Source: Spirochaetales bacterium
GTDB taxonomy: Bacteria > Spirochaetota > Spirochaetia > Treponematales > UBA12059
Reading direction: 5' to 3'
Assembly (NCBI GenBank): GCA_016928955.1
Contig: JAFGJV010000048.1
Coordinates: 62,001-102,093, forward strand
DNA length: 40,093 nucleotides
In this document: one piece after another, positions 11,657-28,800 of the stretch
How the letters are laid out: each line of letters starts with the position of its first letter
Position numbering within the stretch: position 1 is the stretch's first letter
Notes under the pieces: generated by a model
The model's input: the letters and a program-made list of their open reading frames with translations, nothing else
Told to the model about the DNA's origin: nothing
The model's database searches: none
Position numbers and translations under genes: made by a program

Positions 11657-13538
11657 ACACGTCGGTCCGCAGGACCGCCAGCGGAACGCCCCTGAGGCGG
11701 CCGGGAGACACGGGGCCTTTGGCGGCAGGCGGGGCATGGGAGCCGGGCCCGGAGCGGCTCTGGCGGCCCCCGTGGAAAAAGCCAAAGACGCCCGCGGCAC
11801 CCTACGCCGCCTGGCCCATTTTCTCAAGCCCCGGGCGGGAACCTTCCTTGCCCTGATACCCCTGAGCGCCATGGCGTCCGTATTCGGCATAGCCGCGCCG
11901 CGCGTGATGGCCCTGGCCGTGGACGAGCTGTTCCGCGCCGCCACCGGAGGAGCCGGTCAGGCAGGCGTGAACCTGAGCCTGGTAGCGCTGGTACTGGCCT
12001 CCCTGGCGGGCTTGTACCTGCTTGGCGCCCTGTTCCAGTACCTGGTCGCCTTTATCATGGCCGGCCTGTCCCAGGCCACCACCCGCGACCTCCGCAACCG
12101 CGTGATGGCCAAGCTCCACAAACTGCCCATAGGCTGGTTCGACAGACACAGCCGAGGGGATGTCCTTTCCAGGGTGACCAACGATCTGGACACCGTGGCC
12201 AGCACGCTCCAGCAAGGCCTTGCCGAGCTTCTGGGCGCTTCGGTGTCCATGATAGGCGTGCTGGTCATGATGCTGATCATGAGCCCGGCCATGACGGCTA
12301 TCACCGTGCTGGTGCTGCCCCTGAGCATCCTGGTGACGCGGGCCATAACCACCCGCTCCCGCCCGCATTTCATGCGCCAGCAGAAGCACCTGGGCGAGAT
12401 CAACGGCCACGCCGAGGAAATGATATCCGGCCACAGCGTGATCAAGGCCTACGGCGGGGAAGCCGGATCAATCGAGCGCTTTGAGGAGCTGGACAACCAG
12501 CTCAGGGACGCAGGGCTCAAGGCCAACTTCATTTCCGGCCTCATCATGCCGCTCATGCACGTGGTGAACAACATAGGCTACATCATGGTGGCGGTGGCAG
12601 GCGGCGCCATGGCAAGCACGGGCGCCCTGAGCATAGGCGGCATCCAGGCGTTCATACAGTACGCCAAGCAGTTCGGCCAGCCCATCGTGCAGATATCCCA
12701 GATCATCAACATAATCCAGTCCACCCTGGCCGCCGCCGAGCGCGTGTTCGAGATCCTGGACGAACCCGAGGAAAGGCCCGACCCCGAACGTCCGGCCTTC
12801 CCTGAGCAGCTGCGCGGGGAAGTGCGCATACGGGACCTCTGCTTCTCGTACGATCCCGGGCAGAACCTCATGAAGCACCTGAACGTGCTGGTGCAGCCTG
12901 GCCGCTCGGCCGCCATCGTAGGACCCACGGGCGCCGGCAAGACCACCCTGGTAAACCTGCTCATGCGCTTTTACGAGCTGGACGGCGGGTCCATCCTGGT
13001 AGACGACGTGGACATAGCGGACATGGGACGCGAACGCCTGCGCTCCGTGTTCGGCATGGTCCTGCAGGATACCTGGCTGTTCCGCGGCAGCATCCGCGAC
13101 AACATAGCCTACGGCAAGGACGGGGCAACCGACAACGAGGTCATACAGGCGGCCACGGCCGCCCAGGCCGACCATTTCATACGCACCCTGCCGGAAGGCT
13201 ACGACACCCTCTTAAACGAGGAAGGCTCCAACCTGTCCGAGGGCCAGCGCCAGCTCGTGACCATAGCGCGCGCCTTCCTGGCCGATCCCGCCATACTCAT
13301 CCTGGACGAGGCTACCAGCAGCGTGGACACGCGCACTGAGGTGCACATACAGAAAGCCATGCGGGAAATCCTCAAGGGGCGGACCAGCTTCATCATAGCC
13401 CACAGGCTGTCCACCATACGCGACGCCGACGTCATCCTGGTCATGGACAAAGGCGCCATCGTGGAGACCGGCACCCACGAGGAGCTCCTGGAGGCAGGCG
13501 GCTTCTACGACAGCCTGTACCGCAGCCAGTTTGCCTGA
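11646..13538 (+). CDS. ABC exporter, fused permease/ATPase, consensus subunit (TM288/EfrB-like)
   Basis: GPTGAGKT, LSEGQRQ, ILDEATS and AHRLST motifs. GGAGG SD before ATG 11646. Overlaps the upstream partner. Confidence 0.93.
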   Translation: MAREHVGPQDRQRNAPEAAGRHGAFGGRRGMGAGPGAALAAPVEKAKDARGTLRRLAHFLKPRAGTFLALIPLSAMASVFGIAAPRVMALAVDELFRAATGGAGQAGVNLSLVALVLASLAGLYLLGALFQYLVAFIMAGLSQATTRDLRNRVMAKLHKLPIGWFDRHSRGDVLSRVTNDLDTVASTLQQGLAELLGASVSMIGVLVMMLIMSPAMTAITVLVLPLSILVTRAITTRSRPHFMRQQKHLGEINGHAEEMISGHSVIKAYGGEAGSIERFEELDNQLRDAGLKANFISGLIMPLMHVVNNIGYIMVAVAGGAMASTGALSIGGIQAFIQYAKQFGQPIVQISQIINIIQSTLAAAERVFEILDEPEERPDPERPAFPEQLRGEVRIRDLCFSYDPGQNLMKHLNVLVQPGRSAAIVGPTGAGKTTLVNLLMRFYELDGGSILVDDVDIADMGRERLRSVFGMVLQDTWLFRGSIRDNIAYGKDGATDNEVIQAATAAQADHFIRTLPEGYDTLLNEEGSNLSEGQRQLVTIARAFLADPAILILDEATSSVDTRTEVHIQKAMREILKGRTSFIIAHRLSTIRDADVILVMDKGAIVETGTHEELLEAGGFYDSLYRSQFA

Positions 13539-13552
13539 CGCGACGGCCGCGG

Positions 13553-14842
13553 CTACCGGGCGGCGTCCTTGTCGTCTATGAACGCCTCAACCTGCGGCCT
13601 GAGGCGTTCGCCCACCCTGCAGCGTATGATGGACGCCTGGCCGTCGTGGTCCTCGGACAGGACGGCTCCCTGGCTGTACAGCAGGGACACCAGGTCGTAG
13701 CGCTCGGGCGGCACGCGCAGGGTCAGTTCGCCGCGCTCGCCCTCTATGGCGTCGACAATGGCCGAACGGAGCTCGTCTAGGCCCTCGCCGGTAGGCACGG
13801 ACGTGAACACGGCCCGCTCGTGGCGCACCGCCAGGAAATTCATGACATTGCGGTCGGGCAGCTTGTCTATCTTGTTGTAGACCACGACCGACTTGGACAG
13901 GTCCGCGCCTATGCTGGACAGCACCTCGCAGGTGGTTTTCCAGTGCTTGTCGGACTCCGGGTCGGACGCGTCCAGCACGTGGACCAGGAGGTCCGCGCCG
14001 GCCGCTTCCTCGAGCGTCGCCTTGAACGCCTCCACCAGGCCATGCGGCAGATTGCGGACAAAGCCAACCGTGTCCGTAAGAAGCACCGGCCCGTGCTTGC
14101 CCTCCAGCCGCCTGGTCGTGGGGTCCAGGGTGGCAAAGAGCTTGTCCTCCGCCAGCACCTGGGCCCTGGACAGGGCGTTGAGCAGGGACGACTTGCCGGC
14201 GTTGGTGTAGCCGACGATGGCCGCCCTCGGCAGGGTCAGCCGTTCGCGCCTCCTGCGCTGGGTGTCGCGGCTTTTACGCACGTCCTTGAGCTCTTCCTTG
14301 ATGTCGCGGATGCGTTCGGATATGGCCCGCCTGTCCAGCTCTATCTTCTGCTCGCCGGAGCCCTTGGTGCCGTAGCGGCCGCCGCGCTGGCGGTGCAGGT
14401 CCTCGTACGAGTGCGTAAGGCGCGGCAGGGCGTACTGAAGGCGCGCCAGCTCAACCTGGAGGGACGCCTCGCGCGTGTGGGCCCGGCCGGCAAAGATCTT
14501 GATGATCAGTTCCGAACGGTCATACACGGACAGGCCGGACAGCTTCTCCCAGTTTCTCTGCTGGACGGGCGACAAAGGCGTGTCGAAGATGATTGAGTCC
14601 GCGTCAGCCGCCTTGGCCGCCTGCGTAATTTCGTCGGCCTTGCCTGAACCCAAAAGCAGCGCCGCCGTCCGCTCGCGCAGGGGCACGACCATGCTGCCGA
14701 CCACTTCTATGCCCTGGGTGTCGGCCAGGCTGGCCAGTTCTCGGATGAGACTGTCGGCCTCGGGCGCCTGTACGGTCTGGTCGCGCACACCGACCAGGAA
14801 GGCCCGCTCCGGGCGGGCAGCCGTTTCATGCATTTCACTCAC
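13553..14842 (-). CDS. hflX: GTPase HflX
   Basis: GSGK, LSPVQQRNWE, FAGRAHTRE, QVELARLQY-LPRL, GYTNAGKS, LFATLDPT, DTVGF and NKID motifs. Start is GTG 14842 or ATG 14833. Confidence 0.95.
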   Translation of the reverse strand: MSEMHETAARPERAFLVGVRDQTVQAPEADSLIRELASLADTQGIEVVGSMVVPLRERTAALLLGSGKADEITQAAKAADADSIIFDTPLSPVQQRNWEKLSGLSVYDRSELIIKIFAGRAHTREASLQVELARLQYALPRLTHSYEDLHRQRGGRYGTKGSGEQKIELDRRAISERIRDIKEELKDVRKSRDTQRRRRERLTLPRAAIVGYTNAGKSSLLNALSRAQVLAEDKLFATLDPTTRRLEGKHGPVLLTDTVGFVRNLPHGLVEAFKATLEEAAGADLLVHVLDASDPESDKHWKTTCEVLSSIGADLSKSVVVYNKIDKLPDRNVMNFLAVRHERAVFTSVPTGEGLDELRSAIVDAIEGERGELTLRVPPERYDLVSLLYSQGAVLSEDHDGQASIIRCRVGERLRPQVEAFIDDKDAAR

Positions 14843-14849
14843 AGTAGGG

Positions 14850-14878
14850 ATGATACCCGCCAGGCTCCCCGTGGTCGA
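14850..14878 (-). promoter_or_regulatory. Putative promoter of hflX, leaderless configuration
   Basis: TCGACC(14878-14873)-17-TATCAT(14855-14850), 7 nt before GTG 14842. Confidence 0.45.
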
Positions 14879-14927
14879 GGGGCCAGCTCGCTTGGAAGCG
14901 ACTTGTACCCTTAAAAACCCCCTTTGA

Positions 14928-14957
14928 TTGCCCAGGAAAGCCCGGAGGTGGTACAAT
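14928..14957 (+). promoter_or_regulatory. Putative sigma70 promoter of the aminotransferase operon
   Basis: TTGCCC(14928-14933)-18-TACAAT(14952-14957) with an extended TG. AGGAGG SD follows at ~14971. Confidence 0.6.
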
Positions 14958-14983
14958 GGGCCGTCCCAAAAGGAGGGATATCC

Positions 14984-16339
14984 ATGTCTCTTTCGTTGAG
15001 CGATATAGGCAAAGCCGTCCTTGAAACCGAGTATGCCGTGCGCGGCCCCATCGTCGCCCGGGCCCAGGAGCTGGAGCGGTCCGGCAAGCGTATTGTGTAC
15101 TGCAATATCGGCAATCCCCAGGCCCTTGGCCAGAAGCCCCTGTCCTGGGTGCGCCGCATCCTTGCCCTGTCTGAGTTTCCCGCCCTGGCCCAGCTGGCTC
15201 CCGGCGCTTTTCCCGCAGACGCGGTCGAGGAGGCCCACCGCCTGATTGAGGGCAGCAAGCACGGACTGGGCGCCTATTCCGAAAGCAAGGGCGTCCGCTT
15301 CATACGGGAAGCCGTGGCCCAGTTCATCCGCGAGCGCGACGGCATAGACGCCGATCCCGATTCCATATACCTGACCGACGGGGCGTCCAAGGGCGTCCAG
15401 GCGGCGCTGCGCATGCTCATATCCGGGCCCCAGGACGGCATCATGGTGCCCATACCCCAGTACCCCCTCTACTCCGCCACCATCACCCTGTACGAGGGCA
15501 AGCAGGTCAACTACTACCTGGACGAGCACAACGGCTGGAAGCTGTCGCGCCAGATGCTGGAGGAGTCCATAGCCGAGGCCAAGCGCTTTGGCGTCAGGGT
15601 CAAGGGCCTGGTGGTCATCAACCCCGGCAACCCCACGGGCTCCGTGCTGGACGCGGACAACATAGCCATGATCGTGGACTTTGCCCGGGAACACGGACTG
15701 ACCATCCTGGCCGACGAGGTGTACCAGGAAAACGTGTACAGGCAGGGCGAGCGCTTTGTGTCCTTTGCCAAGGTGATGCACGACAAGGGCGAGACCGATG
15801 TGTCCCTGTTCAGCTTCCATTCCACCAGCAAGGGCTTTTTGGGCGAGTGCGGCCACCGCGGCGGCTATTTCGAGATACGGAACATCCCGGCGGACGTGTC
15901 CGCCCAGCTGCTCAAGCTGCAGTCCGTGAGCCTGTGCGCGAGCCTGCCCGGCCAGGTGACCGTGTACTGCATGGTGCGCCCGCCCAAGCCCGGCAGCCCG
16001 AGTCACGACGAGTACGCGCGCGAGCGGGACGGCATCCTGGGCGAGCTCAAAAAGCGGGCGCGCCTGGTGGCCGACGGCCTCAACTCCATACCCGGCGTGG
16101 CCTGCAACGAGGTGGCCGGCGCGATGTACGCCTTCCCGCGCATCGAACTGCCCGCGGGCAAGACTGACTCGGAGTGGTGCATGGCCCTCCTTGAGGCTGA
16201 AGGCATCTGCGTGGTGCCCGGCTCAGGGTTCGGCCAGATACCCGGCACGGCCCATTTCCGCACGACCATACTGCCGCCCACGGACCAATTGGCCGATGTG
16301 GTGGACAAGATAGCCCGTTTCCACGCGTCGTACCGCTGA
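14984..16339 (+). CDS. Class I/II PLP aminotransferase, alanine aminotransferase (ALT/GPT)-like
   Basis: EYAVRGPI, NIGNPQALGQ, PIPQYPLYSA, INPGNPTG, ADEVYQEN, HSTSKG (PLP Lys), ECGHRGGY and VPGSGFGQ motifs. Strong SD. Confidence 0.92.
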   Translation: MSLSLSDIGKAVLETEYAVRGPIVARAQELERSGKRIVYCNIGNPQALGQKPLSWVRRILALSEFPALAQLAPGAFPADAVEEAHRLIEGSKHGLGAYSESKGVRFIREAVAQFIRERDGIDADPDSIYLTDGASKGVQAALRMLISGPQDGIMVPIPQYPLYSATITLYEGKQVNYYLDEHNGWKLSRQMLEESIAEAKRFGVRVKGLVVINPGNPTGSVLDADNIAMIVDFAREHGLTILADEVYQENVYRQGERFVSFAKVMHDKGETDVSLFSFHSTSKGFLGECGHRGGYFEIRNIPADVSAQLLKLQSVSLCASLPGQVTVYCMVRPPKPGSPSHDEYARERDGILGELKKRARLVADGLNSIPGVACNEVAGAMYAFPRIELPAGKTDSEWCMALLEAEGICVVPGSGFGQIPGTAHFRTTILPPTDQLADVVDKIARFHASYR

Positions 16340-16368
16340 CGCGCAAGGAGCCTACAAGGAGCACGTTT

Positions 16369-16647
16369 ATGGAATACAGAGCAAGCCACATCCTGGTCAA
16401 AGACAGGACCCTGGCCCAGGACCTGGTGCGCAGGGCCAAGCAGGGCGCAGACTTTGCCAGCCTGGCGCGGGAGCATTCCACCTGTCCGTCAAAATCGTCG
16501 GGCGGCGACCTGGGCTGGTTCGGCCCAGGCAAGATGGTCCAGCCTTTTGAGTACGCCTGCAAGAACCTGGGCGTAGGCTCCATTTCAGACGTGGTGCAGA
16601 CCCAGTTCGGCTACCACGTGATCAAACTCACCGGCAAGCGGGACTGA
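16369..16647 (+). CDS. ppiC: Parvulin-type peptidyl-prolyl cis-trans isomerase
   Basis: 92 aa with ASHILV, FASLAREHSTCPS, GGDLGWF, MVQPFE and TQFGYHVI. AAGGAG SD. Confidence 0.93.
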   Translation: MEYRASHILVKDRTLAQDLVRRAKQGADFASLAREHSTCPSKSSGGDLGWFGPGKMVQPFEYACKNLGVGSISDVVQTQFGYHVIKLTGKRD

Positions 16648-16698
16648 CCGAAACCCCTGCGGCCCGCGTACCCGCGTCCACCTTTTAAGGAGACCAGC

Positions 16699-18555
16699 AT
16701 GAACGGACAGGCCAGATGGTTTGCCAGCGACAACAACGCGTCCATCCATCCCAGGATACTGTCCGCCATCCAGGCGGCCAATGGCGGCCATGCCATAGGC
16801 TATGGCGACGACCGTATCACCCGGGAGGCCGAGGCCGCGGTGGCGGACATCTTTGGCCCCGGCAGCGTGGTGCGCTTTGCGGTCAACGGAACGGGCGCCA
16901 ACGTGTACGCCCTGTCCTGCCTGGCGGGCCACGGCGACGCTGTGTTCTGCTCGGACTGCGCCCACATCCTGGTAGACGAGACGGGCGCGCCGGCGGCCAT
17001 GGTCGGGGCCCAGCTGGTTCCGCTTCAGTCCAGGCACGGCAAGCTGGACGCGAGCGCGGTGGCCGCCGCCATAGACCTGTACGGCGATATGCACAAGCCG
17101 CGCCCGCGCGTTCTGTCCCTCAGCCAGCCTACGGAACTGGGCACCGTGTACACGCCGGCCGAGCTGGCCGAGCTCTGTGCCCTGGCCCACGATCACGGCC
17201 TGGCCGTGCACGTGGACGGAGCCCGGCTCGCCAACGCGGCGGCCGCCCTGAACACAGGTCCAGCGGAAGCCGCCGGCGACGCAGACGCCGTGTGCTTTGG
17301 CGGCACCAAAAACGGACTGATGTTCGGAGAGGCCGTGGTCTTCCCCAATCGGCCCGGCCGCGCCTTGCCCGATACCGCCCGCCTGCGGAAAACGTCCGGC
17401 CAGCTGGCCAGCAAAATGCGCTTCCTCTCGGCCCAGTTCCTGGAGTACGCCAAGGACGATCTGTGGCTGGAAAACTCCCGGGCCGCCAACGCCATGGCCG
17501 CCCGCCTTGCCCAAGGTGTACGCCGCCTGGGACTCAGGCTCCTTGCTCCGGTTGACACCAACGCTGTGTTTGCCTTCGCGCCCAAAGCGGTGGTGGAAGA
17601 ACTGCGCGAGCGCGCCTTCTTCTATGACTGGGAAGACGGGGCCGTCCGCTGGATGGCCAGCTGGGACACCACGGAAGCGGACGTGGATACCTTCCTGGCG
17701 GCGCTCGAAGCCAGCCTCAAGGCCCATGAAAGCGACGCTCCCGAACGGACGCCCGCCATGGATGCCGAGCTGGAGCGACGCCTGACAGCGGGTCGGGCCT
17801 TCCTCAAAGCCGGCTGGCACGACGTGGAACGCTTTCCCAGCGACCAGATGCTGGGCCTGGCCGCCCCGCCCCTGCGCGCGCCGGTGCCTGAAGGCGCGAC
17901 CATCGTCGCACTGCCCGACCCCCAGGCATCCGGCCTGGGCGCAAAGGCTTTCTCAGCCGTGACGGCGTCGCGCAGAAGCCGCCGGAAATTTTCCCAGGTC
18001 CCGCTGTCTCTGGCCGAGCTGTCCTTCCTCCTCTGGGCGACAGCCGGCGTGCGCGACCGTGAAGCCGCAAGCAAGCCCGGGGCCAAATTCGCCTTCCGTA
18101 CGGTACCTTCGGGCGGCTGCAGGCATCCTTTGGACCTGCTCGTGTACGCGCGAGCCGTGGACGGCCTTCCGCCGGGGCTGTACCGCTTCCTGCCGGAGAG
18201 CCACGCGCTGGCTCTCCTGAAAGCCTCGTCTCCCCTCGGCCACACGGGCTTTAGCCTGGACGCAGAGTTCGACGCGGCCCTCCTTGGCCAGCTGTGGAAC
18301 TGTGCGGCCCTGTTCGTCTGGAACGCCCTGCCCTACCGGGCGGAGTGGCGCTACACCGTGGCGGGCGCCAAGCTGTGCGCCCTAGACGCAGGACACGCCT
18401 GCCAGGCCCTGTACGGGGCCTGCGAGGCCTTGGGCCTGGGTACCTGCGCCATTGGCGCCTACGACCAGGAACTCATGGATACGGCCACCGGGGCCGACGG
18501 AACGGACGAATTCACCATCTACGCCGCGCCGGTAGGCCGGCCCCGGGAGGACTAA
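16699..18555 (+). CDS. Fusion protein: low-specificity L-threonine aldolase-like domain + SagB/ThcOx-type nitroreductase-superfamily domain
   Basis: N-part: FASDN, NGTGAN, SQPTELGTVY, HVDGARLANA, GGTKNG (PLP Lys), SKMRF. C-part: SDQ, RRSRRKF, LSFLLWA, RTVPSGGCRHP, RAEWRY, DAGHACQ, GLGTCAIGAYD. No internal stop. Confidence 0.88.
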   Translation: MNGQARWFASDNNASIHPRILSAIQAANGGHAIGYGDDRITREAEAAVADIFGPGSVVRFAVNGTGANVYALSCLAGHGDAVFCSDCAHILVDETGAPAAMVGAQLVPLQSRHGKLDASAVAAAIDLYGDMHKPRPRVLSLSQPTELGTVYTPAELAELCALAHDHGLAVHVDGARLANAAAALNTGPAEAAGDADAVCFGGTKNGLMFGEAVVFPNRPGRALPDTARLRKTSGQLASKMRFLSAQFLEYAKDDLWLENSRAANAMAARLAQGVRRLGLRLLAPVDTNAVFAFAPKAVVEELRERAFFYDWEDGAVRWMASWDTTEADVDTFLAALEASLKAHESDAPERTPAMDAELERRLTAGRAFLKAGWHDVERFPSDQMLGLAAPPLRAPVPEGATIVALPDPQASGLGAKAFSAVTASRRSRRKFSQVPLSLAELSFLLWATAGVRDREAASKPGAKFAFRTVPSGGCRHPLDLLVYARAVDGLPPGLYRFLPESHALALLKASSPLGHTGFSLDAEFDAALLGQLWNCAALFVWNALPYRAEWRYTVAGAKLCALDAGHACQALYGACEALGLGTCAIGAYDQELMDTATGADGTDEFTIYAAPVGRPRED

Positions 18556-18556
18556 G

Positions 18557-19678
18557 ATGCCAGCCCAGGTGTTTTTCATGGACGCGCGCTCGCGCTCGGG
18601 CGGCTCAAGCTCGTTGGCCAAAATCAAGGCCCTGCTCAAGCGGGTTGCCGAGGCTGAACCGGGTGCCCTCAGGAAGGGCGAGCTCTGCGCCATAAAGATT
18701 CACTTTGGCGAATTGGGCAACGACGCCTATATGAGTCCCGTGCTGGCCCGTGCGGCCGCTGACTTGGCCTTGGAAGCAGGCGCCAAGCCCTTTTTTACCG
18801 ACACCAATACCCTGTACACGGGTTCCCGCTCCAACGCGGTGGACCACCTGAACACGGCCATAGCCCACGGTTTTGTGCCTGAGGTGTGCGGAGCTCCCGT
18901 GGTCATAGCGGACGGCCTGACCAGCGAGAACTGGCGCGAGGTGCCCCTGCCCGACGCGTGCACTCGCTTCAGGTCGGCCAAGATAGCCGGTGGCATCCTT
19001 GAGGCCGACTGCATGATCGTCCTGTCCCACTTCAAGGGCCACGAGATGGCCGGCTTTGGCGGCGCCGTCAAGAACCTGGCCATGGGTTGCGCCCCCTGGC
19101 TCGGCAAGCGCGAACAGCACAGCGTGAAATTCCGCGTCAAGGAGGGTCGCTGCGTGGCCTGCGGCCGTTGCGTGCCCGTGTGCCCGTCCGGCGCCATCAC
19201 GCGGCCGGGTGACGGCAAGGCTGTCATCGACCAGGAGCTGTGCATAGGCTGCGGCGAGTGCCTGGCCTACTGCGCGCCCAAGGCCATTGTCATGGACTGG
19301 GACGTGGCCCTGCCTGAATTCACCGAGAAGATGACCGAGTACGCCCTGGGCGCCCTGCACGGAAAAAAAGACCGCGTGCTGTACCTCAGCGTTTTGTCGG
19401 CGATATCGCCGCTTTGCGACTGCACGCCCTGGTCAGACGCGCCCATAGTCCCCGACCTCGGCTTCCTTGCGTCCACCGATCCCGTGGCCATAGACCAGGC
19501 CGCCCTGGACCTGGTCAACGCGGCTCCCGTGCGTCCAGGCTCGGCCCTGGACGGCAAGGCCGGCCCGGGCGACGATAAATTCAAGGCCCTCCACCCCAAC
19601 ACCGCCGGGGATATCCAGCTGTCTCACGGCCAGGCCATAGGGCTGGGATCCAGGGACTACGAGCTCGTGCGCCTCTGA
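18557..19678 (+). CDS. DUF362-domain protein with 2x[4Fe-4S] ferredoxin insert
   Basis: IKIHFGE, TDTNTLY, SHFKGH, GFGGAVKNLAMG, CVACGRCVPVCP, CIGCGECLAYCA, SPLCDC and DPVAIDQA motifs. Confidence 0.88.
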   Translation: MPAQVFFMDARSRSGGSSSLAKIKALLKRVAEAEPGALRKGELCAIKIHFGELGNDAYMSPVLARAAADLALEAGAKPFFTDTNTLYTGSRSNAVDHLNTAIAHGFVPEVCGAPVVIADGLTSENWREVPLPDACTRFRSAKIAGGILEADCMIVLSHFKGHEMAGFGGAVKNLAMGCAPWLGKREQHSVKFRVKEGRCVACGRCVPVCPSGAITRPGDGKAVIDQELCIGCGECLAYCAPKAIVMDWDVALPEFTEKMTEYALGALHGKKDRVLYLSVLSAISPLCDCTPWSDAPIVPDLGFLASTDPVAIDQAALDLVNAAPVRPGSALDGKAGPGDDKFKALHPNTAGDIQLSHGQAIGLGSRDYELVRL

Positions 19679-19720
19679 TAGGCCCGCCTGCACTAGCCCC
19701 CGGAAGACTTTCTGAGAAAA

Positions 19721-19758
19721 ACGGCCCGCCCCGTGCATCGGGGCGGGCCGTCGCTTTT
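19721..19758 (+). terminator. Rho-independent terminator, probably bidirectional
   Basis: ACGGCCCGCCCCG-tgcat-CGGGGCGGGCCGT hairpin preceded by an A-run and followed by TTTT, between convergent genes. Confidence 0.75.
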
Positions 19759-19774
19759 GCTGGAAACCTTTTAT

Positions 19775-19810
19775 GGGCACCTCTAAAAACGGCAGTTTTT
19801 AGAGGCGCCT
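19775..19810. repeat. AT-cored palindrome, REP/MITE-like
   Basis: GGCACCTCTAAAAAC-ggca-GTTTTTAGAGGCGCC, a 15-bp arm with one mismatch. Confidence 0.6.
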
Positions 19811-19815
19811 TAGTG

Positions 19816-22800
19816 TCAGTTTCGGACGACCATCACCTTGCGGATCTCGTCCATGCCCGGCGCCACCACGCGTATGAAGTATACGCCGCGCGCCACCGGC
19901 CGTCCTCCGTCGTTGCGGCCGTCCCAGCTGACCGTGTAGTCCCCGGGAGCCTGGCGGCCGCGCTGGAGCACGGTCACCACGTCGCCGTCCAGGGTGAACA
20001 CGGCTATGGTCACCGGGCCCTCCTCGTCCAGCACGTAGTTGAGCCGCGTGCGCTCGCCCGTGGTCGGGTCTATCACGTTGTTCAAAATGGTCACGCCGCC
20101 GCGCTGGGTCTTGAGATCGCGTATGTCAAAGCTGAAGGGCCGCACCAGCCTGTACCATTCGGCAGGCAGGGCCGCGGCACCCGCCTGCATGTCCAGGCGA
20201 CCCGCGTAGAGATCCGTGGGTGTACCCGACAGCCTGAACCAGAAGTCCAGCGTGGCCCTGTCATGGATCTCAGGATGGTCTGCGTCAAAGCTGTTGCCCC
20301 AGAGCCCGCCGCCGTCGTCCGTGCATGCCTGGGTGTACACGCCGCCTGAGGGGAAGGCCAGGTTAGGATAGGCGGCCAGCCCCGAGAAGTCCACCTCCAG
20401 GTATTCGGGCAGCCATATTCCGGGCACGGCGCTCACGTAGCGCTCGTCAACGTTGGAGTCGAAGAACATGGTCGGGCTTACCGCGACGAGCACCGGATTC
20501 AGCCTGGACTGCATGACGATGTCCTGGTCGCGCAGCCATTGGGTGCCGTCAAAGGCACGAACAAGGCCCACCGTCACGTTTGCGCTCTCGGCCGGGCTCA
20601 GGGGTTCGAAGGTGCTCACATCTCCCGGCAGGTAGCCCGAGTCCTTGGCCCATATCGGCCACACGAACCACGAGTCCGGGTTGGCCGCGCTCCACGAGCC
20701 TGGGTCCGCGCTCGGCTGGACGGACACCAGGAGGTCTGACACGCGGTGGGTATTCTTTGACCCACGGCCCAGGGTGAAGGCCGGACGGTCCAACGGCAAG
20801 GTCGGTGGCGCTGGCGGATACTGAGAATAATCCACGCTGGGGTCTGAGGTATACCCTGTAATCGGCGGCCAGGTTGGTGGATCCGGCCCGATTATCTGAC
20901 TATTGTACGCCACATCCCAGAACGGGGGCTCTCCGAGATCTTCCGATGAAGCGACTACCGTCATTGTGGACATACCCGCCATCAAGTCGGCCATAGCATA
21001 CGTCCCATAGTCGGCCACGGCCTCTATGGTCCCAGAAGCGGTTCCGGACACCGAAAGAAAGCCCGTAGCGCCCATAAAGTCGGCAAGGTCTATGGGGCCA
21101 GTCCTGCCGCTTTTGGCCACGGGTTCTGAGAAATGCACGAAGGTGCCATCGTTTTGCGGCACGGTAAGCGTATAGCCGATTATCGGCCACGCTCCATCAC
21201 CGGGAGTCATCCAGTCCGACCCTCCGGTTCTGGACAGCGTACCCACGAATTTCTGTTCGGGGACATCCATAAGGGACGTGTTCGCAACAATGTGCCAATC
21301 AGGCAGCACCCCGGTGTCCAGATACGGCTTCTCAACGAGGTGTATATAGAAGGTCGTGGGATTGACCAACGATGGGCAGGAATAACCGTTGTCACCGACA
21401 TTCGTATCAACCTCATACCCGGCCACCTCGGCCAGGAATCCGGAAAAGTCTGCGTTCACAGGTCCTTCCGTGGTTACGCGTATCCTGTCCAGCTTGCCGT
21501 CATAATCCGAGTCTTCCGTGTAGCTGTACACGGAGTAGAGATAATCAAGCCACTTGAAGCAGAAATGCACGTTGTAGGGAGTTGCGTGAACGTCCGGCGG
21601 CACCGACACCGGATACGCGCGGGCATTTGAATAGAACACATCCACATACTGCATATCGAAGGTGGTCGGACCGGGCATGAACTCGAAGAACCAGAACAAC
21701 GCGTCCTCAGCCGGAGCCAGGGGCGGATTCGAAGGATCTGCCCCCGGTGTCATCCTGTTCAAGGTGATTTGTGTGGCCGCTCCCCAGGCCGTGCCCCTGA
21801 CTCTGAAAATGCCGCCCGATACGATACGCTGGGTCATGGCGTTTTCAAACAGAATGGTTGTACCGGGTTTTGAGCAGTGGAATACGAACCACGAGTTGTT
21901 CCCGTAGATGTATATAGTCGACAAAGTTGGATCAAAGGTTACAGTCCCGCTCCGGGCGATGAAACCGGTATGGCCAACGTCGTTGCGCCATTCGTTGTTG
22001 ATGACAAGGTTGGTAGCGGTCAGCCCATAATCCAGAACTCCCGTGAGCACGTGCAAGCTGTTCATTACGGTAACGTCGCCGGCCAGGGTATGGACCCCCG
22101 CGCCCGAACCTGCTATGCGCAGGTTGCGGTAGGTGCCGCCCGAGAAGCCGGTGGTGAACACCTGGCTGGCTGGATCGCTACCGTAGTACTCGACCACGCC
22201 GGCCGCCGTGTCAAAGGCGGTGAAGGCGTGCGTGGCCTGGGTGCCGGTCAGGCGCAGGACCGAGCTGTCGTCGGTCAAATCGAGCGTGGCAATGGTGAAA
22301 TTGGAGTCGCTGAGGTCCAGGGTCTCTCCCGCGCCGACCGCGGCCGTACCCGTTATGCCCAAACTACCCAAGCCGCTGTCCAGGGTAAGGGTCGTGACCA
22401 CGGACAGGTCGTCCAGGCTCATGTCGTTGCCCGCCGCTCCGCCCGTACGCACCACGCCCCTGAACTGATTGAAGCCCGTCACGTTGGATATGAGCCCGCC
22501 CTGGAAGAGAAAGTCGTCCAGGTCACCGTCGCCAAGATTGACGTTGCCCGTGTTGGCAAACGTGACGGGCGAAACCACATCACAGCCGCCGTTCATGGTA
22601 ACGGCGTATGCGCCGCCCCCGAATATCAGGCCGCTCAGGTCCACAAAGCCGGAGAACGTAACATTGCCCGTGGCCGCGCCATCCTGAAGGGTCAGGGTGC
22701 TTGCCGCTGATTCGGCCACGCCGCCGTCGAACACGATGGTCCCAGCGCCTGCCAGCAAGGCGGCCGACGTTCCCACGGTGGCGTTGCCGTGGTAGCTCTG

Positions 22801-25800
22801 GGCGCCGCTCGTGGTGATGTCCGCGTTGATGGCTACAAGGCCGTCCACGCTGAGGGTGGTGATGGCGCTCGCGTTTCCGTCAAAACGAGCGTCCGCCGTG
22901 GTCACGGTCAGAGCCGAGCTGGATCCGGTCAGGGTGCCGCCAAAGCGCACCACGCTGCCGGCGTTGGCCGTGAATACGGCGTTGGAAGCCAGGGTAACCG
23001 GGCCAAGGTAGTCCTGGTTGCCGGTGGTGGTCACGACCACAGCGCTATCCGTGAACGCCACGTCGCCCGTGGCCGACAGAGCCGAGAGGCCGCTGACGTC
23101 ATCAGGGAAGGTGATCTGCCCGTTGGCCCCGCCCCCGTCCGCGCTCGCGTCCAGGACCAGGGAAGAGGCCCCGCCCACGGTGGACGCAAAGCTGACGGCT
23201 CCGGCCGCCGCTGTTCCTGCGGCCGCGTCGGTGTCCACAGCGGCGTCTGCCGTCAGGGTCACCGGCCGCCTGAAATACACGGCTCCGCCGTTGGTCGCCG
23301 CCACCGTGCCCGCGTATGACAGGGTGATGCCGACCAAGGGATTGAGGTCTATGTCCATGCCGGCAGCGCCGGCCGTGGACAGAGGTCCGGCCACCACGAT
23401 GCCGCCAGCGGCGCTCGCCGCGGTGATGGATCCGGTGGCAAGACACGCGTTCAGGGTGTAGCCGTCTGCGTCGTTGATGCTGAGTACGGCCGAGCTCGGC
23501 ACGTTGACGCTTGAGAGCGCGTTGGTCGCGCGGTCCAGGATAGCGTCGCCAAGGCCGGCTGTTATGGTAAGGAGCCCACCGAGCGCCAGGTCTCCGCTCT
23601 GCGTTATGTCGTGGGTGGCGCCGCCGCCGCCCTGTATGGTCGCCCAGGCGGTACTGGACAGTGCAGACAGCGTAAAGCCGCTGGCGTCCAGCCAGGCCAA
23701 GGTGCCCGCCCGCGCCAGGGTACCGCCGGCATCCAGGGTCCGGAGTGACAGGACGGAAGCGTCGTTTGCCAAAGCGCCCAGTTCAATATTGGCTCCCGTG
23801 GCGTGCAGGGTGGCGATGTCCACCGTGCCGTCCGGAACGCTTGCGCTCTGGGTCTGGCTGACCGTCCCGGCGGCCCGCAAAGTCAGGGCGTTGGCTCCCG
23901 TTATGGACACGCCGTTTGTGCCGGCCACCGAACCCAGGTCCAAAGGCCCGTTTACGCTCAGGCTAACCGGCCCCGTGACCGCGGCGGCCAGAGTGGCCGC
24001 GGCGTTGGCCTGGGTCAGGGCAAAGCTGCCCGTGCCAGACAATCTGAGGCCGCCAGGGGCCGTGAACGCCGTGCTCTGGGTTGCGCCGCCTCCGCTTATG
24101 GACAGGTAGCCCGAGCCCCCGGCGACCAGGGCGGCGTTCAGGGCAACGCCACCGGCGCCGGAAAGGGATATATCCGCCGCTCCCGGCCCCGTGGTACCCG
24201 ACGCTCCGCTTACCGTGAGGATGCCGGCCGCCGTGGACAGGGTCAAGGTTCCGCCTGCGAATCCGTTGTTGGCCGTAACGCCCAGGGCGCCGGCGTTGGC
24301 GTACACGATGTTTCCCGACGACGCGCCGTTTGTCAGCACGGCCGCTCCGGCCGAGTTTGCCGGATTGCCCAGGCTGATGCCGTCGTTGGCGCTGACCGTT
24401 AGGGTTCCGGCGCCAGCGTTGACCGATAGCGCGCCCGCACCTACAACAGCCGCCGTCGTTTCCAGGGTCAGGCTGGAGCCGGCAACGGATAGGTTGTTGG
24501 CCAGGTTGATGCCGCCTGAAGTGGTCCGCAGGATCACCGGCCCGCTTGCGTTGGTCAGGGTAGCGATGCCGTCCGTCTGGATGGCGCCTGCGTGCGTAGG
24601 CCTTCCGATGGTCAGGGTGCCTACCGTGCTTATGGTGTCCAGCTCTGCGTCGGACAGGCCCAGGCTCCCTGCCAGGGCTCCCGCGCCCAGGCTGACCGGC
24701 CTCGCAAGGTCGTTCGGATAGATGGCCACTGCCGTGGCCGCCGTGATGCTGGTGGCCACGGCAAAATTCATGGTGTCTGCCGCCAGGGTCACGGAACCAG
24801 CGCCTGACGATATGGTGCCTGCCGTGTGCGCGAGGGTGCCACCGGCGTCCGTTACGGTCAGGGTTACGGAGCTCCCGCCGCTTACGTCGTGGCCAAGGCC
24901 GAGTCCAGATGTGGACCTGAGGTCCAGCACGGTACCCGCGCTGATGGTGCCGGCCGTCGCCGCGCTTCCGGCGTTGGACAGCCAGAAGCCGCCCGTGCTC
25001 GCCGCGCCGGCAAGATTGGCCGCCTGGGTAAGGATCGGGGCTGACGCGTCGCCCACGATGGTGGTGCCGCCGGCGGAGCCCAGGTTCACGGTGCCCGCTA
25101 TCAAGGTACCAGCGCCCGCCGTCTGCTCGGTGATGGTGCCCGTGGCGTTCAGGGCTATGGAACCCGCCGGCCCTACGTCCAGGTCCCCGGCTATGATGAT
25201 GTTGCCGCTTGAGTCGACGCGGAGGGCCCCTCCGGCCCACTGGCTCAGGGCCGGGTTGGCCCCGCCCAGGGTGACGGCGGCCGTGGACAGGAAGAGATCG
25301 CCGCTCGTGGTATTGGTGGCGGACAGGGTTCCGCCAACCGTGCCTATGGCAACGGAAGCGGCTGGTATGACGCCTATGCCCGACACTGCCTCAAGACTCA
25401 GGGATCCGGTCGCGGACAGGGTGCCCGCAACGCATGTAATCGAAGCGCCAGTCGCCAGGATGAGGTTGCCGGTTCTCGTGACCGGTCCTTCCACCACGAT
25501 GCCGCCCGTCTGCGACGCGTCGCCCACGGTCAGATTTCCCGTGGTTGTGACAACATCCAGTTCAGGGTCGCCAAGCAGCAGGCCGCCAATGCCCCCGCCC
25601 AGGCGGATGACCGTCGCGGCGTTCTGCGGACGCAGCGTCACGTTTCCTGCCCCGGCCGTTATCGCCGCGGCAAGGTTCATGTCGTCCGCCACCAACAGGA
25701 TGGTGGCCGTATTGGCCCCGCCCCCGTTCCCCAGGGCTCCGGCTACGGTGAGCAACTCTCCAAGGCCGCTTGCCGTCAGGCTGATGTCGCCGTTGGCCGT

Positions 25801-28800
25801 GCTCACGCCGCCCGCGGCCACGCTGATACTGCCCGTGCTTTCCGTCACGGTGAACAGGCCGCCGGTCACGGAGTTCGAGCCTGAAAGACCCAGGGTGTTG
25901 GCCGCTCCCACGCTGGATGCATAGACAACGTCGCCCGTGGCGCCAGCGCCGCCGTTCGTAAGGCCGGCGCTCAGAACCATATTGGCACCGGACAAATTGA
26001 TGCCGTCATTGGCGCTGACCGTGAGCGCTGTCCCGCCTATCACGCCCGCTCCCGCCACCGCGTCCGCGGCTGTAAGCGACACGGTGCCTCCGGTCACGGC
26101 ATGGCCTATGTTCAGGTTTGTTCCCGCCTGCAGGGTCACAGACGCGCTGGACGACAGCGCGGCGGCCGTGCTCAGCGAGTCGCCGGAATACAGGTCCAGG
26201 ATGCCGGCTCCGGTGTTTATTACCACGGCCGGCAGGGTCAGCAGGTCGGACACGTGCACCCACAGGGGAGCGTCCGCCGCCATGTTAGGCGCGGAAAGGC
26301 TTAAATTCCCGGTATGCGTGACGTAGGCTCCGGCCAAGGCCGAAGCCTGGCCCAGGTTGAGCGTGGTTGTAGACACGCCCGGGTTGGACGCCAGGGAGTT
26401 CAAGGGCGAGCCCAGGGCGCCTACCACACCGAAACTGCCGGCCTGGGTTTGGAGGTTGAGGATGTCCGACACCACGCTACCTATGCCGCCTATCGCTCCG
26501 GCCCCCAGGGTGTCCAGGCTGACCGTTCCGGCTCCCGAGTTGACCAAGCCGGATACGGTGATGGCGCCAGTATTGCGTATGGTTACCGTGCCGCCCGAGT
26601 ACTGGCTGATGTTGCTGACGGTCAGCGGCGCTGCCGTGTTATAAAGTTCAATGGCTCCTGACGCGGTATTGGTCGCCGTAAACGAGCCAACCGTATTGGC
26701 CTGGGTCAAGGCTGCTCCGCCCACGGATGTGACAGTCAGGCCCGCGGCGCTTACGACCCCGGACTGGCTGATGGGCCCGTCAGCGTTGACGGTCAGGGTG
26801 CCCGTGATGACGGACGCGTCCAGGATGATACCGGATGCGTCAATGACGCTGGCATTGGTGCCTGAGCTTATTATGAAGGTGCCAAAGTCGCTGGTGGCCA
26901 CGTCCAGGACCAGGGACTGGGCGGCGGGCAGGGCAAAGCTGGCAGTGCCGGGCACGGTTAGGATTCCCATGTCGGTGGCCGTGCCGGATGTCATGGCCAC
27001 GCTCAGGTCCGCGACCAAGGTGATGCTCGGCAGGGCCAGGGCCGTGCCGCCGCCAAGACTCAGGGAGCCCAGGGGGTCAAGGGAGCCGATAGCCGCGCCC
27101 AGGCTGAGAGTGCCCGTGCCCGCGTACAGAAAGAGCGACTCCGTCACGCCGCCGGCCGTCCCGTCTATGGTGGCCGCGGCGCCAAAGCTGAGGTTTCCGG
27201 CGCCGGCGCCCGTGCTGACCGTGGGGCTTGCCGTCTCGGCCAGGACCACCGGGCGCTGGAACTCTATGAGGCCGGCGTTGGTGCCCACGTTGGCGCCCAG
27301 CCTGACGGGAGCCCGGAGCGAAAGGCTCCGGCCGGCGTCCGTGTTGGTGAAAGCGCTGTCTATGCGTATAAGGCCGGGCGTGGCGTCGTCGCCCTCTATG
27401 ATCAGGTTGGGCACGGCCGTATTGACGGCCGCCGCCAGGGTGATGGCGCCTGTAAATCCGTCAGCGCCCAGGGTGACCGACGCAAAGCCCGTGCCCAGTA
27501 TGGTTAGGAGCTCAGCGCTGGTCAGGTCCAGGGAGCCAGGTCCCGCGTCCGCTGCGGCTCCCAGGTTGATAGGCTGGGTGGCCGTGACCGGGCGGAGGGT
27601 CAGGGTGCCCGTGCCGTACACGGAAGCCGCTACTCCCGCCGTCAGGTTGATCTCGTCCGCGCTGACCGTAAGCGACAGGGCGCCCACGTTGAAGCGGCCG
27701 AGCGCAATCGTCGAGCCTGACAGACCTATAAGCTCGGTGGCGGCCCCGAGGCTCATGCCCCCGGCCAGGGAGGTGGACGCTGAAAGACCGCCCGAGAAGC
27801 TGCTGGTCCCCGAAAAGCTGAGCGCCGCGGCTCCTGACAGGGTAAGGACGCCTAGGTTTGCCGTGGCCGCCTGGGTGACCGCGTTCACGGCCAGGGTGCC
27901 GGCGCCGCTGGCGGCCACGCCCAGGCCGGCCGCGCGTATCTTGGCCAGATCGGCGTTGGACAGGGTGCAGGCAGCTACCGCCGTACCAAGGCCCACCGTG
28001 GTCCCGGCAGGTGCATGGATGGACAGCGTGTTGGCGCCCGCGTCTATGGCGTACAGGTCCGCCGAGCTGAGAACGACATCCGCCGCGGTAATGATGGTCG
28101 GGACGGCGCAGGACGCGTGGCCCGCGCTGACGGTCAGGGTGCCCGCCACGCCGGTATCCGCGCCCAGGGCCAGGGTGCCGCCGGCCAGGCTCAGGTTGAA
28201 GTAATCCGTAACGCCGTAGTCAAAGACCGCGCCAGAGCCTGCCGTGGCGTAGCGGAAGGTACCTGTGTTGGTGTCCTGGGTGCCTATGGTGTGCGTGGTC
28301 TGCTCGCCGCTCAGGGCCACGATGCCGTCGTTGACCAGCGTCGCTATGTCAAAGTTATTGCCGCCCAGATCCAGGGTTTGGTTCGCGCCCAACGTGAGGA
28401 CGCCGCTTACGTTCAGGGCTCCGGACACGGTGGTGGTATCCGTGCCGCCGGATACGGACAGGTTGTTAAAGGTCTGGCCTCCCGTGGACACGGCCTGGCC
28501 GACCGTGCCGTTCAGGGCCATGGTGCCCGTGCTGGTCAGGGTACCCGTGATGGTCAGGGTCCCGCCCACGGTCACCGTTCCAGAGCTTGCCAAGGTGCCT
28601 TCCAGGGTCAGGTTGCCCGTTACCGTAACCGCGTAGGCGTTTGCCGTGAGCGTGGCGCCCGGCTCAACGCTCAGCGCCGACAGGGTGGCCGGGATAGCGT
28701 TCAGGATGGGCTGGTAGGTGGCCGGCCGTATGACCACGCGGGATCCCGCGGGGGGCACGGCTCCCAGGCTCCAGTTGGCAGCCGTGAACCAGTTGGTCTC

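Follow-up and report, generated by a model that had tools for sequence, protein, structure and literature searches.

A lineage-specific fusion of an L-threonine aldolase with a SagB/ThcOx-type flavin domain in Spirochaetia, probably two loosely tethered, independent enzymes

A single open reading frame of 618 amino acids in the window (the whole stretch of spirochaete DNA analyzed here, 40,093 nucleotides) joins an L-threonine aldolase (LTA) to a SagB/ThcOx-type FMN domain, which raises the question of whether two enzymes that share a polypeptide also share a reaction. An initial annotation had described two complete domains in one frame and proposed that the flavin domain acts on the product of the aldolase. 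Our analysis establishes that the fusion is genuine, and we consider it probable that it is a lineage-specific arrangement in which a housekeeping PLP aldolase is loosely tethered to an independent passenger FMN oxidoreductase. The gene has the following parts:

16687..16692, + strand: Shine-Dalgarno-like site of the fusion gene (sequence; duplex energy -9.2 kcal/mol)
16699..18555, + strand: fusion gene, LTA plus SagB/ThcOx-type FMN domain, 618 aa (ORF, Pfam and NCBIfam matches, homologues)
16699..17736, + strand: PLP-dependent low-specificity LTA domain of the Pseudomonas/Mycobacterium type, aa 1-346, with S10, H89, D93, H132, E146, D173, R176, K204, and R317 (phmmer, structure, residue counts)
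17719..17778, + strand: linker that varies between relatives, aa 341-360, with Met354 (pairwise identity averaging 20%; lengths differ)
17752..18552, + strand: orphan SagB/ThcOx-type FMN domain of nitroreductase fold, aa 352-618, with R425, S427, R429, Q531, R551, and Y552 (TIGR03605, alignments to ThcOx and BmdC, residue counts)

The frame has no internal stops, and the two complete domains of the initial annotation were recovered by Pfam (Beta_elim_lyase at aa 8-294 with 176.9 bits and Nitroreductase at aa 423-614 with 73.6 bits), by the NCBIfam SagB profile (TIGR03605, 106 bits), and in at least 62 full-length homologous clusters. Contigs from three of four public runs (X2, 17477-17857; X5, 14800-17841; and the RNA-labelled X16, 17506-17895) cross the junction at 17690-17780 without gaps, and the contigs of run X13 have a hole there; a comparison of the contigs of the four runs, rather than of raw reads, listed no indel within the frame. 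X13 and X16, both RNA labelled, cover the gene as contigs only, which does not imply transcription. All 18 fusion coding sequences checked are single frames, and an AlphaFold2 model built from 62 sequences has two well-folded domains (pLDDT, 88.5; pTM, 0.64). Across 7 genome pairs, dN/dS was 0.07 to 0.17 in the LTA half versus 0.09 to 0.20 in the flavin half, with dS near 1 in most pairs; catalytic residues are identical between fused and free LTA and SagB-type forms in residue counts, and both active sites are intact and under purifying selection.

The N-terminal half belongs to PF01212 (176.9 bits against a cut-off of 27) and falls short of both the equivalog for E. coli-type LtaE (NF007825, 64 bits against 312) and the profile for GntG-family PLP aldolases (NF041359, 92.4 bits against 230). 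It matches the threonine aldolase of Mycobacterium vanbaalenii, 7w0i (phmmer E value of 4.5e-76), on which the model superimposes with a Z score of 43.7 and an rmsd of 1.8 Å over 329 residues at 43% identity. The GGTKNG motif lies at aa 201-206 with its lysine intact, as had been read from the sequence, and K204, which we take to be the PLP Schiff-base lysine, is kept in fused and free forms. Together with S10, H89, H132, D173, R176, and R317, it is invariant in the 78 fused-clade rows at covered positions and present in 128 to 129 of 129 free rows. D93, E146, and Y309 likewise vary little or not at all in both sets of rows. Eighteen LTA positions are conserved in a lineage-specific manner, including R59, K133 (beside H132), and R228 (78 of 78 fused rows against 0 of 129 free rows), and most of these residues also occur in P0069, an LTA of the fused lineage that is joined to a GNAT acetyltransferase. 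The N-terminal half is predicted to be an ordinary low-specificity LTA, with PLP on K204, H89 as base, and the carboxylate bound by S10, R176, and R317, that would cleave L-(allo-)threonine to glycine and acetaldehyde.

The C-terminal half scores above the cut-off of the SagB profile (TIGR03605 at aa 438-614, 106 bits against 78.4) and far below that of the putative peptide maturation dehydrogenases (TIGR04511, 79.4 bits against 240). The predicted FMN-binding Arg-x-Ser-x-Arg motif (R425, S427, R429) and the active-site Tyr (Y552) are present in all 79 fused-clade rows. A Foldseek comparison of this half with ThcOx (8pz5) gave an E value of 5.5e-14, and a putative nitroreductase also matched at about 1e-13; a wide structural search was dominated by PLP-domain matches and scarcely probed the flavin domain. 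The alanine of the PSGG loop is replaced by Cys474 in 67 of 79 fused sequences, compared with 11 of 190 free SagB-type proteins. The counts for this change (A474C) and for N570A are the same in the fused clade (67, 10, and 2 of 79 each), and the two look like a compensatory pair. In our reading, this half, as an orphan FMN oxidoreductase of the SagB type, would hold its FMN between two protomers and use Y552 as Tyr base, and it most likely catalyzes, without YcaO, a two-electron reaction of its own small-molecule substrate. For Tyr-assisted dehydrogenation as its reaction we see about an even chance, and NAD(P)H-linked reduction of a quinone or nitro compound is a slightly less probable candidate. 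One soil protein of the SagB family made E. coli sensitive to metronidazole, according to the accessible part of PMC10055417; the literature searched yielded no native substrate for the YcaO-independent SagB-type family.

The linker is unconstrained: across 18 coding sequences it is 20% identical, against 68% for the LTA and 62% for the flavin domain. An in-frame ATG occurs in the linker of 5 of these sequences, at differing places, and Met354 is not conserved. The region 5' of this codon (17758) pairs weakly with the anti-Shine-Dalgarno sequence (-3.2 kcal/mol, against -9.2 kcal/mol at the true start), which agrees with the earlier remark that the internal Met lacks a ribosome-binding site.

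The fusion lies in a probable operon with alaT, ppiC, and a DUF362 gene:

14928-14957: promoter-like site of the probable operon (consensus match only)
14984..16339, + strand: alanine aminotransferase-like gene (alaT), first of the probable operon (profile matches; found in all 12 genera, fused or not)
16369..16647, + strand: PpiC/parvulin-type peptidyl-prolyl isomerase, conserved upstream neighbor (profile matches, relatives' loci)
18557..19678, + strand: DUF362 protein containing a two-[4Fe-4S] domain, often the downstream neighbor (profile matches; kept where the fusion is lost)
19721..19751, + strand: 13-bp stem-loop with T-rich tail, probable terminator of the alaT-ppiC-fusion-DUF362 unit (consensus match; inferred)

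The best NCBIfam match of alaT is PRK08363, at 224 bits below its cut-off of 534; by eye it presumably resembles the alanine aminotransferases of plants and animals, and it is 68 to 84% conserved and present in 39 of 42 genomes of the family. Three terminator-like sites were found where 3.4 are expected by chance, so the terminator at 19721..19751 is a prediction. Contigs of three of the four runs carry a one-base insertion at 19741, in the noncoding sequence of its stem, which is either a strain difference or an assembly error. A tRNA search of the window found none, and an Rfam scan of 13000-21000 gave no match. Downstream, on the - strand at 19816-30615, lies a gene for a repetitive, probably secreted protein of 3599 aa with a C-terminal FlgD Ig-like domain, relatives of which occupy the same place in several fused genomes. 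The fusion locus takes varied insertions in relatives (L113, L115, L117, L111, L112), among them a family-B DNA polymerase, PHP and HAD hydrolases, a phosphonate-binding-like protein, and sensor-like genes.

At least 62 full-length fusion clusters besides the window's own, at 50 to 65% identity, were among the best 120 listed of 4087 matches, as were 4 more that are partial and carry both domains; the source names lead to Spirochaetia. Within the window's family, a match crossing the junction was found in 25 of 42 genomes and 8 of 12 genera. These eight genera hold 29 genomes, of which 25 are fused, 2 are cut by contig ends, and 2 have no match; of the last two, one has a contig that breaks off just behind alaT, and in the other alaT has no match either. 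In genus g4 the LTA and SagB-type genes are both free, on different contigs, and genera g3 and g8 have a free SagB type. An MCP gene shared by the surroundings of LTA in g4 and of SagB in g3 was considered as a link and rejected, as it belongs to a generic chemoreceptor family. Outside the family, no fused match was found in 301 genomes of the order and 351 of the phylum, and the best 150 of 1.84 billion representatives included no independent LTA::SagB fusion, so this is not a common annotated architecture. Databases annotate the fusion either as threonine aldolase or as SagB family peptide dehydrogenase. We found no description of it in the open-access literature searched, within which it is apparently an undescribed architecture of two known domain families.

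In FastTree phylogenies of each domain, the fused sequences form one clade with an SH-like support of 100 (270 rows for SagB and 208 for LTA), and the nearest free LTAs are from spirochaetes. A tree of alaT alone was without resolution and was replaced by one of alaT, hflX, and DUF5312 (33 rows, rooted on the sister family, with genomes less than 30% filled omitted), which places all fused genera below one node of support 100, with genus g6 nested inside. Together, the trees show a single origin of the fusion. In g6 neither half is found at the locus and alaT runs directly into the DUF362 gene; its genomes have an E. coli-type LTA and no SagB-type match, and this genus has lost the fusion. P0069 has a counterpart in its lineage, the free SagB-type protein P0121; each lies on a contig of 37,223 bp, probably one and the same. 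AU tests of this pair as an ancestral two-gene state versus a later split gave p values of 0.46 and 0.22, and a single-sequence fold of P0121 reached a pLDDT of 33. A burst of change after the fusion, which the long stems of the trees had suggested, was rejected with matched taxa: the stem/crown ratios of the two domains (0.51 and 0.47) against those of three marker genes (0.61, 0.48, and 0.10) indicate no burst at the origin. The course of events we consider most probable is that two native spirochaete genes, apart in outgroups, were brought into the alaT-ppiC-DUF362 operon in a single ancestor and underwent one fusion there.

Whether the halves cooperate was approached through their free relatives. 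No SagB-type gene was found in 83 free LTA loci (1.22 Mb), and no LTA, DUF362, or ppiC gene in 96 free SagB-type loci (0.73 Mb, with many short contigs). Among 54 sister-family genomes, whose kinship makes them nonindependent, this LTA type was found in 18 and the SagB type in 35; the two occur together in 7, against 11.7 expected, and in all 7 on different contigs; counting any LTA, 31 genomes have it together with SagB, where 30.5 are expected under the same caveat of kinship. The Pseudomonas-type and E. coli-type LTAs appear nearly mutually exclusive in the sister family (together in 5 of 54 genomes versus 11.3 expected). An E. coli-type LTA was present in all 10 genomes of g3, g6, and g8, and no match to this type was found in 20 of the 25 fused ones. 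The LTA of the fusion is thus in most cases the sole LTA recovered, and the LTA types stand in for each other. Elsewhere, LTAs are fused to GNAT, M24 peptidase, SDR, pentapeptide, and EF-hand domains, and SagB types to DUF1330 and unnamed N-terminal domains, mostly in single, unverified representatives. An apparently longer LTA in one genome (G387, a frame of 798 codons) looks like an upstream run-on opposite another gene rather than a fusion. The genome of the window also encodes SHMT, the glycine-cleavage P protein, and aldehyde dehydrogenases, so the disposal of glycine and acetaldehyde would need no flavin domain.

From these data we infer that the halves probably sit on a flexible tether and work independently, and that the fusion may persist because it is tolerated and co-expression costs nothing. 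We take the LTA half to be tetrameric, as known LTA structure entries show four chains each. SagB-type domains bind FMN between two protomers, as the accessible part of PMC8795117 has it. The protein would accordingly form a core of aldolase subunits that carries flavin-domain dimers; a predicted complex of the LTA domain with two flavin-domain copies scored 0.00, an absence of answer that is evidence neither way. Several observations weigh against independence: in the eight genera, 25 of 29 genomes retain the fusion, down to 50% identity; a single probable split (P0069/P0121) and a single loss were found; the lineage has its own conserved changes in both halves (18 LTA positions and A474C/N570A); and the joining of genes from separate loci is something that selection could have favored.

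The initial proposal of a flavin domain working on what the aldolase releases found no support in neighborhood, co-occurrence, independent fusions, linker constraint, or rate of change. Free relatives would show no sign of a coupling acquired once the genes had fused, and such a coupling is hence compatible with these negative comparisons. In such a bifunctional enzyme, which we regard as unlikely, the flavin domain would oxidize or reduce a substrate or product of the aldolase, for example the released aldehyde, an aldehyde-cysteine thiazolidine/thiazoline adduct, or a beta-hydroxy amino acid, and would possibly pass electrons to the neighboring DUF362 Fe-S protein. The long retention of the fused state, the purifying selection on both halves (the 7 pairs above), the Tyr base kept in the flavin half, the lineage-specific basic residues close to the LTA active-site loop, and a probable operon that also holds an aminotransferase gene and an Fe-S protein gene are all consistent with this coupling. 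Weighing more heavily with us are the free genes, which are neither linked nor co-occurring, the single origin, and the unconstrained linker; moreover, the lineage-specific LTA residues are mostly common to the LTA::GNAT form P0069, and DUF362, absent from all 96 free SagB-type loci, stays where the fusion was lost.

Still less likely, and rather improbable on its own terms, is that the flavin domain services the aldolase, for example by reoxidizing pyridoxamine phosphate from a side reaction to PLP or by redox tuning of assembly or activity. PLP aldolases can be inactivated by side transamination, and this fact and the base that the flavin domain retains beside FMN could both be accommodated by such a role, as could the lineage-specific Cys474 of the PSGG loop (67 of 79 fused versus 11 of 190 free). 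LTAs nevertheless do without a SagB-type gene in 16 of 54 sister-family genomes, and no SagB-type enzyme with such an activity was found in the literature searched.

A role in azole-peptide maturation, with the C-terminal domain serving in trans as azoline dehydrogenase of a TOMM pathway, is favored by the TIGR03605 score above cut-off and by the presence of a YcaO cluster in the window's own genome. The initial annotation had considered this unlikely and had reported that YcaO is absent, which holds for the window, where none was found among the 30 ORFs scanned, and fails for the genome, where a cluster lies on another contig:

G000:C24:3987-14800, - strand: azole-peptide (SagBCD-like) cluster of the window's own genome (YcaO, 127.8 bits, and SagB match; other labels by eye)

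This cluster contains YcaO, SagC-like and SagB-type genes, three radical-SAM-like genes, an ABC transporter pair, and two membrane-protease-like genes, with a candidate Cys-rich precursor of 81 aa starting near 14775 and an adjoining recombinase-like gene. YcaO occurs in only 2 of 42 family genomes, so the cluster was probably acquired, and in 1 of 25 fused genomes, which is the window's own; on this count azole-peptide maturation is rejected as the function of the fusion. The cluster moreover has a dehydrogenase of its own, 28% identical to the fused domain, and the fused locus lacks both YcaO and a precursor. The fused domain has no leader-binding peptide-clamp domain, its N-terminal part being an aldolase, and carries Arg-Tyr in place of Lys-Tyr. 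Overall, we consider a role in TOMM maturation very improbable, which leaves the earlier judgment of it standing. An assembly artefact or a recent loss of a stop codon is refuted, with a residual probability we regard as negligible, because at least 62 full-length clusters, 18 of 18 single frames, and a junction bridged by three of four runs speak against it and nothing was found in its favor.

As it stands, the fusion is a lineage-marking domain architecture, and it illustrates that a SagB match need not imply peptide maturation and that a fusion of single origin says little in favor of functional coupling. In practice it would be of use for approaching the orphan SagB-type family, whose members are widespread and keep the catalytic Tyr. 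Were the halves coupled, the substrate of that family would be revealed by the fusion; the reaction would represent a new step of amino-acid fermentation, and the large YcaO-independent SagB-type family would gain its first native substrate.

Among known systems, the closest LTAs are those of M. vanbaalenii (7w0i), Pseudomonas putida (5vye/1v72), and Neptunomonas marina (7yvr), which have the fold of the N-terminal half (computed against 7w0i) but are stand-alone proteins of about 345 aa, whereas the fusion adds a flavin domain of 270 aa; K133 and R228 of the fusion stand where free relatives mostly have H/R/A and Y/F. The residues that the accessible text of PMC9922994 names for the P. putida enzyme (S10, H89, D93, H133, E147, R177, Y312, and R321) map to S10, H89, D93, H132, E146, R176, Y309, and R317 of the fusion, whose LTA half may be viewed as a natural variant of an enzyme class that, by the same portion of that source, is engineered for biocatalysis.

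The flavin domain shares the nitroreductase fold of ThcOx, a cyanobactin oxidase (5lq4, 8pz5), and BmdC, an NRPS oxidase (7ly4-7ly7), but it has neither their YcaO nor their NRPS partner. ThcOx 8pz5 is remote (18% identity by Foldseek, in an alignment longer than the domain). Unlike ThcOx as described in the accessible part of PMC5108345, the fused domain lacks the peptide clamp, and it has Arg-Tyr (R551 in 77 of 79) where ThcOx has Lys-Tyr. The FMN ligands of BmdC (R145/R146/S147/R149 and G294) and its base Tyr260, as given in the available text of PMC8795117, map to R425/R426/S427/R429, G586, and Y552.

Far closer are the orphan stand-alone proteins of about 250 aa named SagB/ThcOx family dehydrogenase, atlas clusters of which score 0.95. 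These proteins are free, with no common neighborhood beyond one related group (L151, L162, L167, L180, L182, L210, and related loci), in which the gene lies between a gene for a C_GCAxxG_C_C redox protein (11 loci) and an adenosine-kinase-like gene (13 loci) and follows a gene that by eye is glycerol-kinase-like (15 loci). Some SagB-type proteins carry N-terminal extras of about 100 aa, namely DUF1330 in P0126 and helical-looking segments without a Pfam match in P0203, P0248, P0412, L127:6927-7970, and L188:5671-6726; an apparent SagB fusion in L137 was rejected as two in-frame genes. The orphan stand-alone proteins align with the whole fused domain at 45 to 57% identity and have the same invariant residues.
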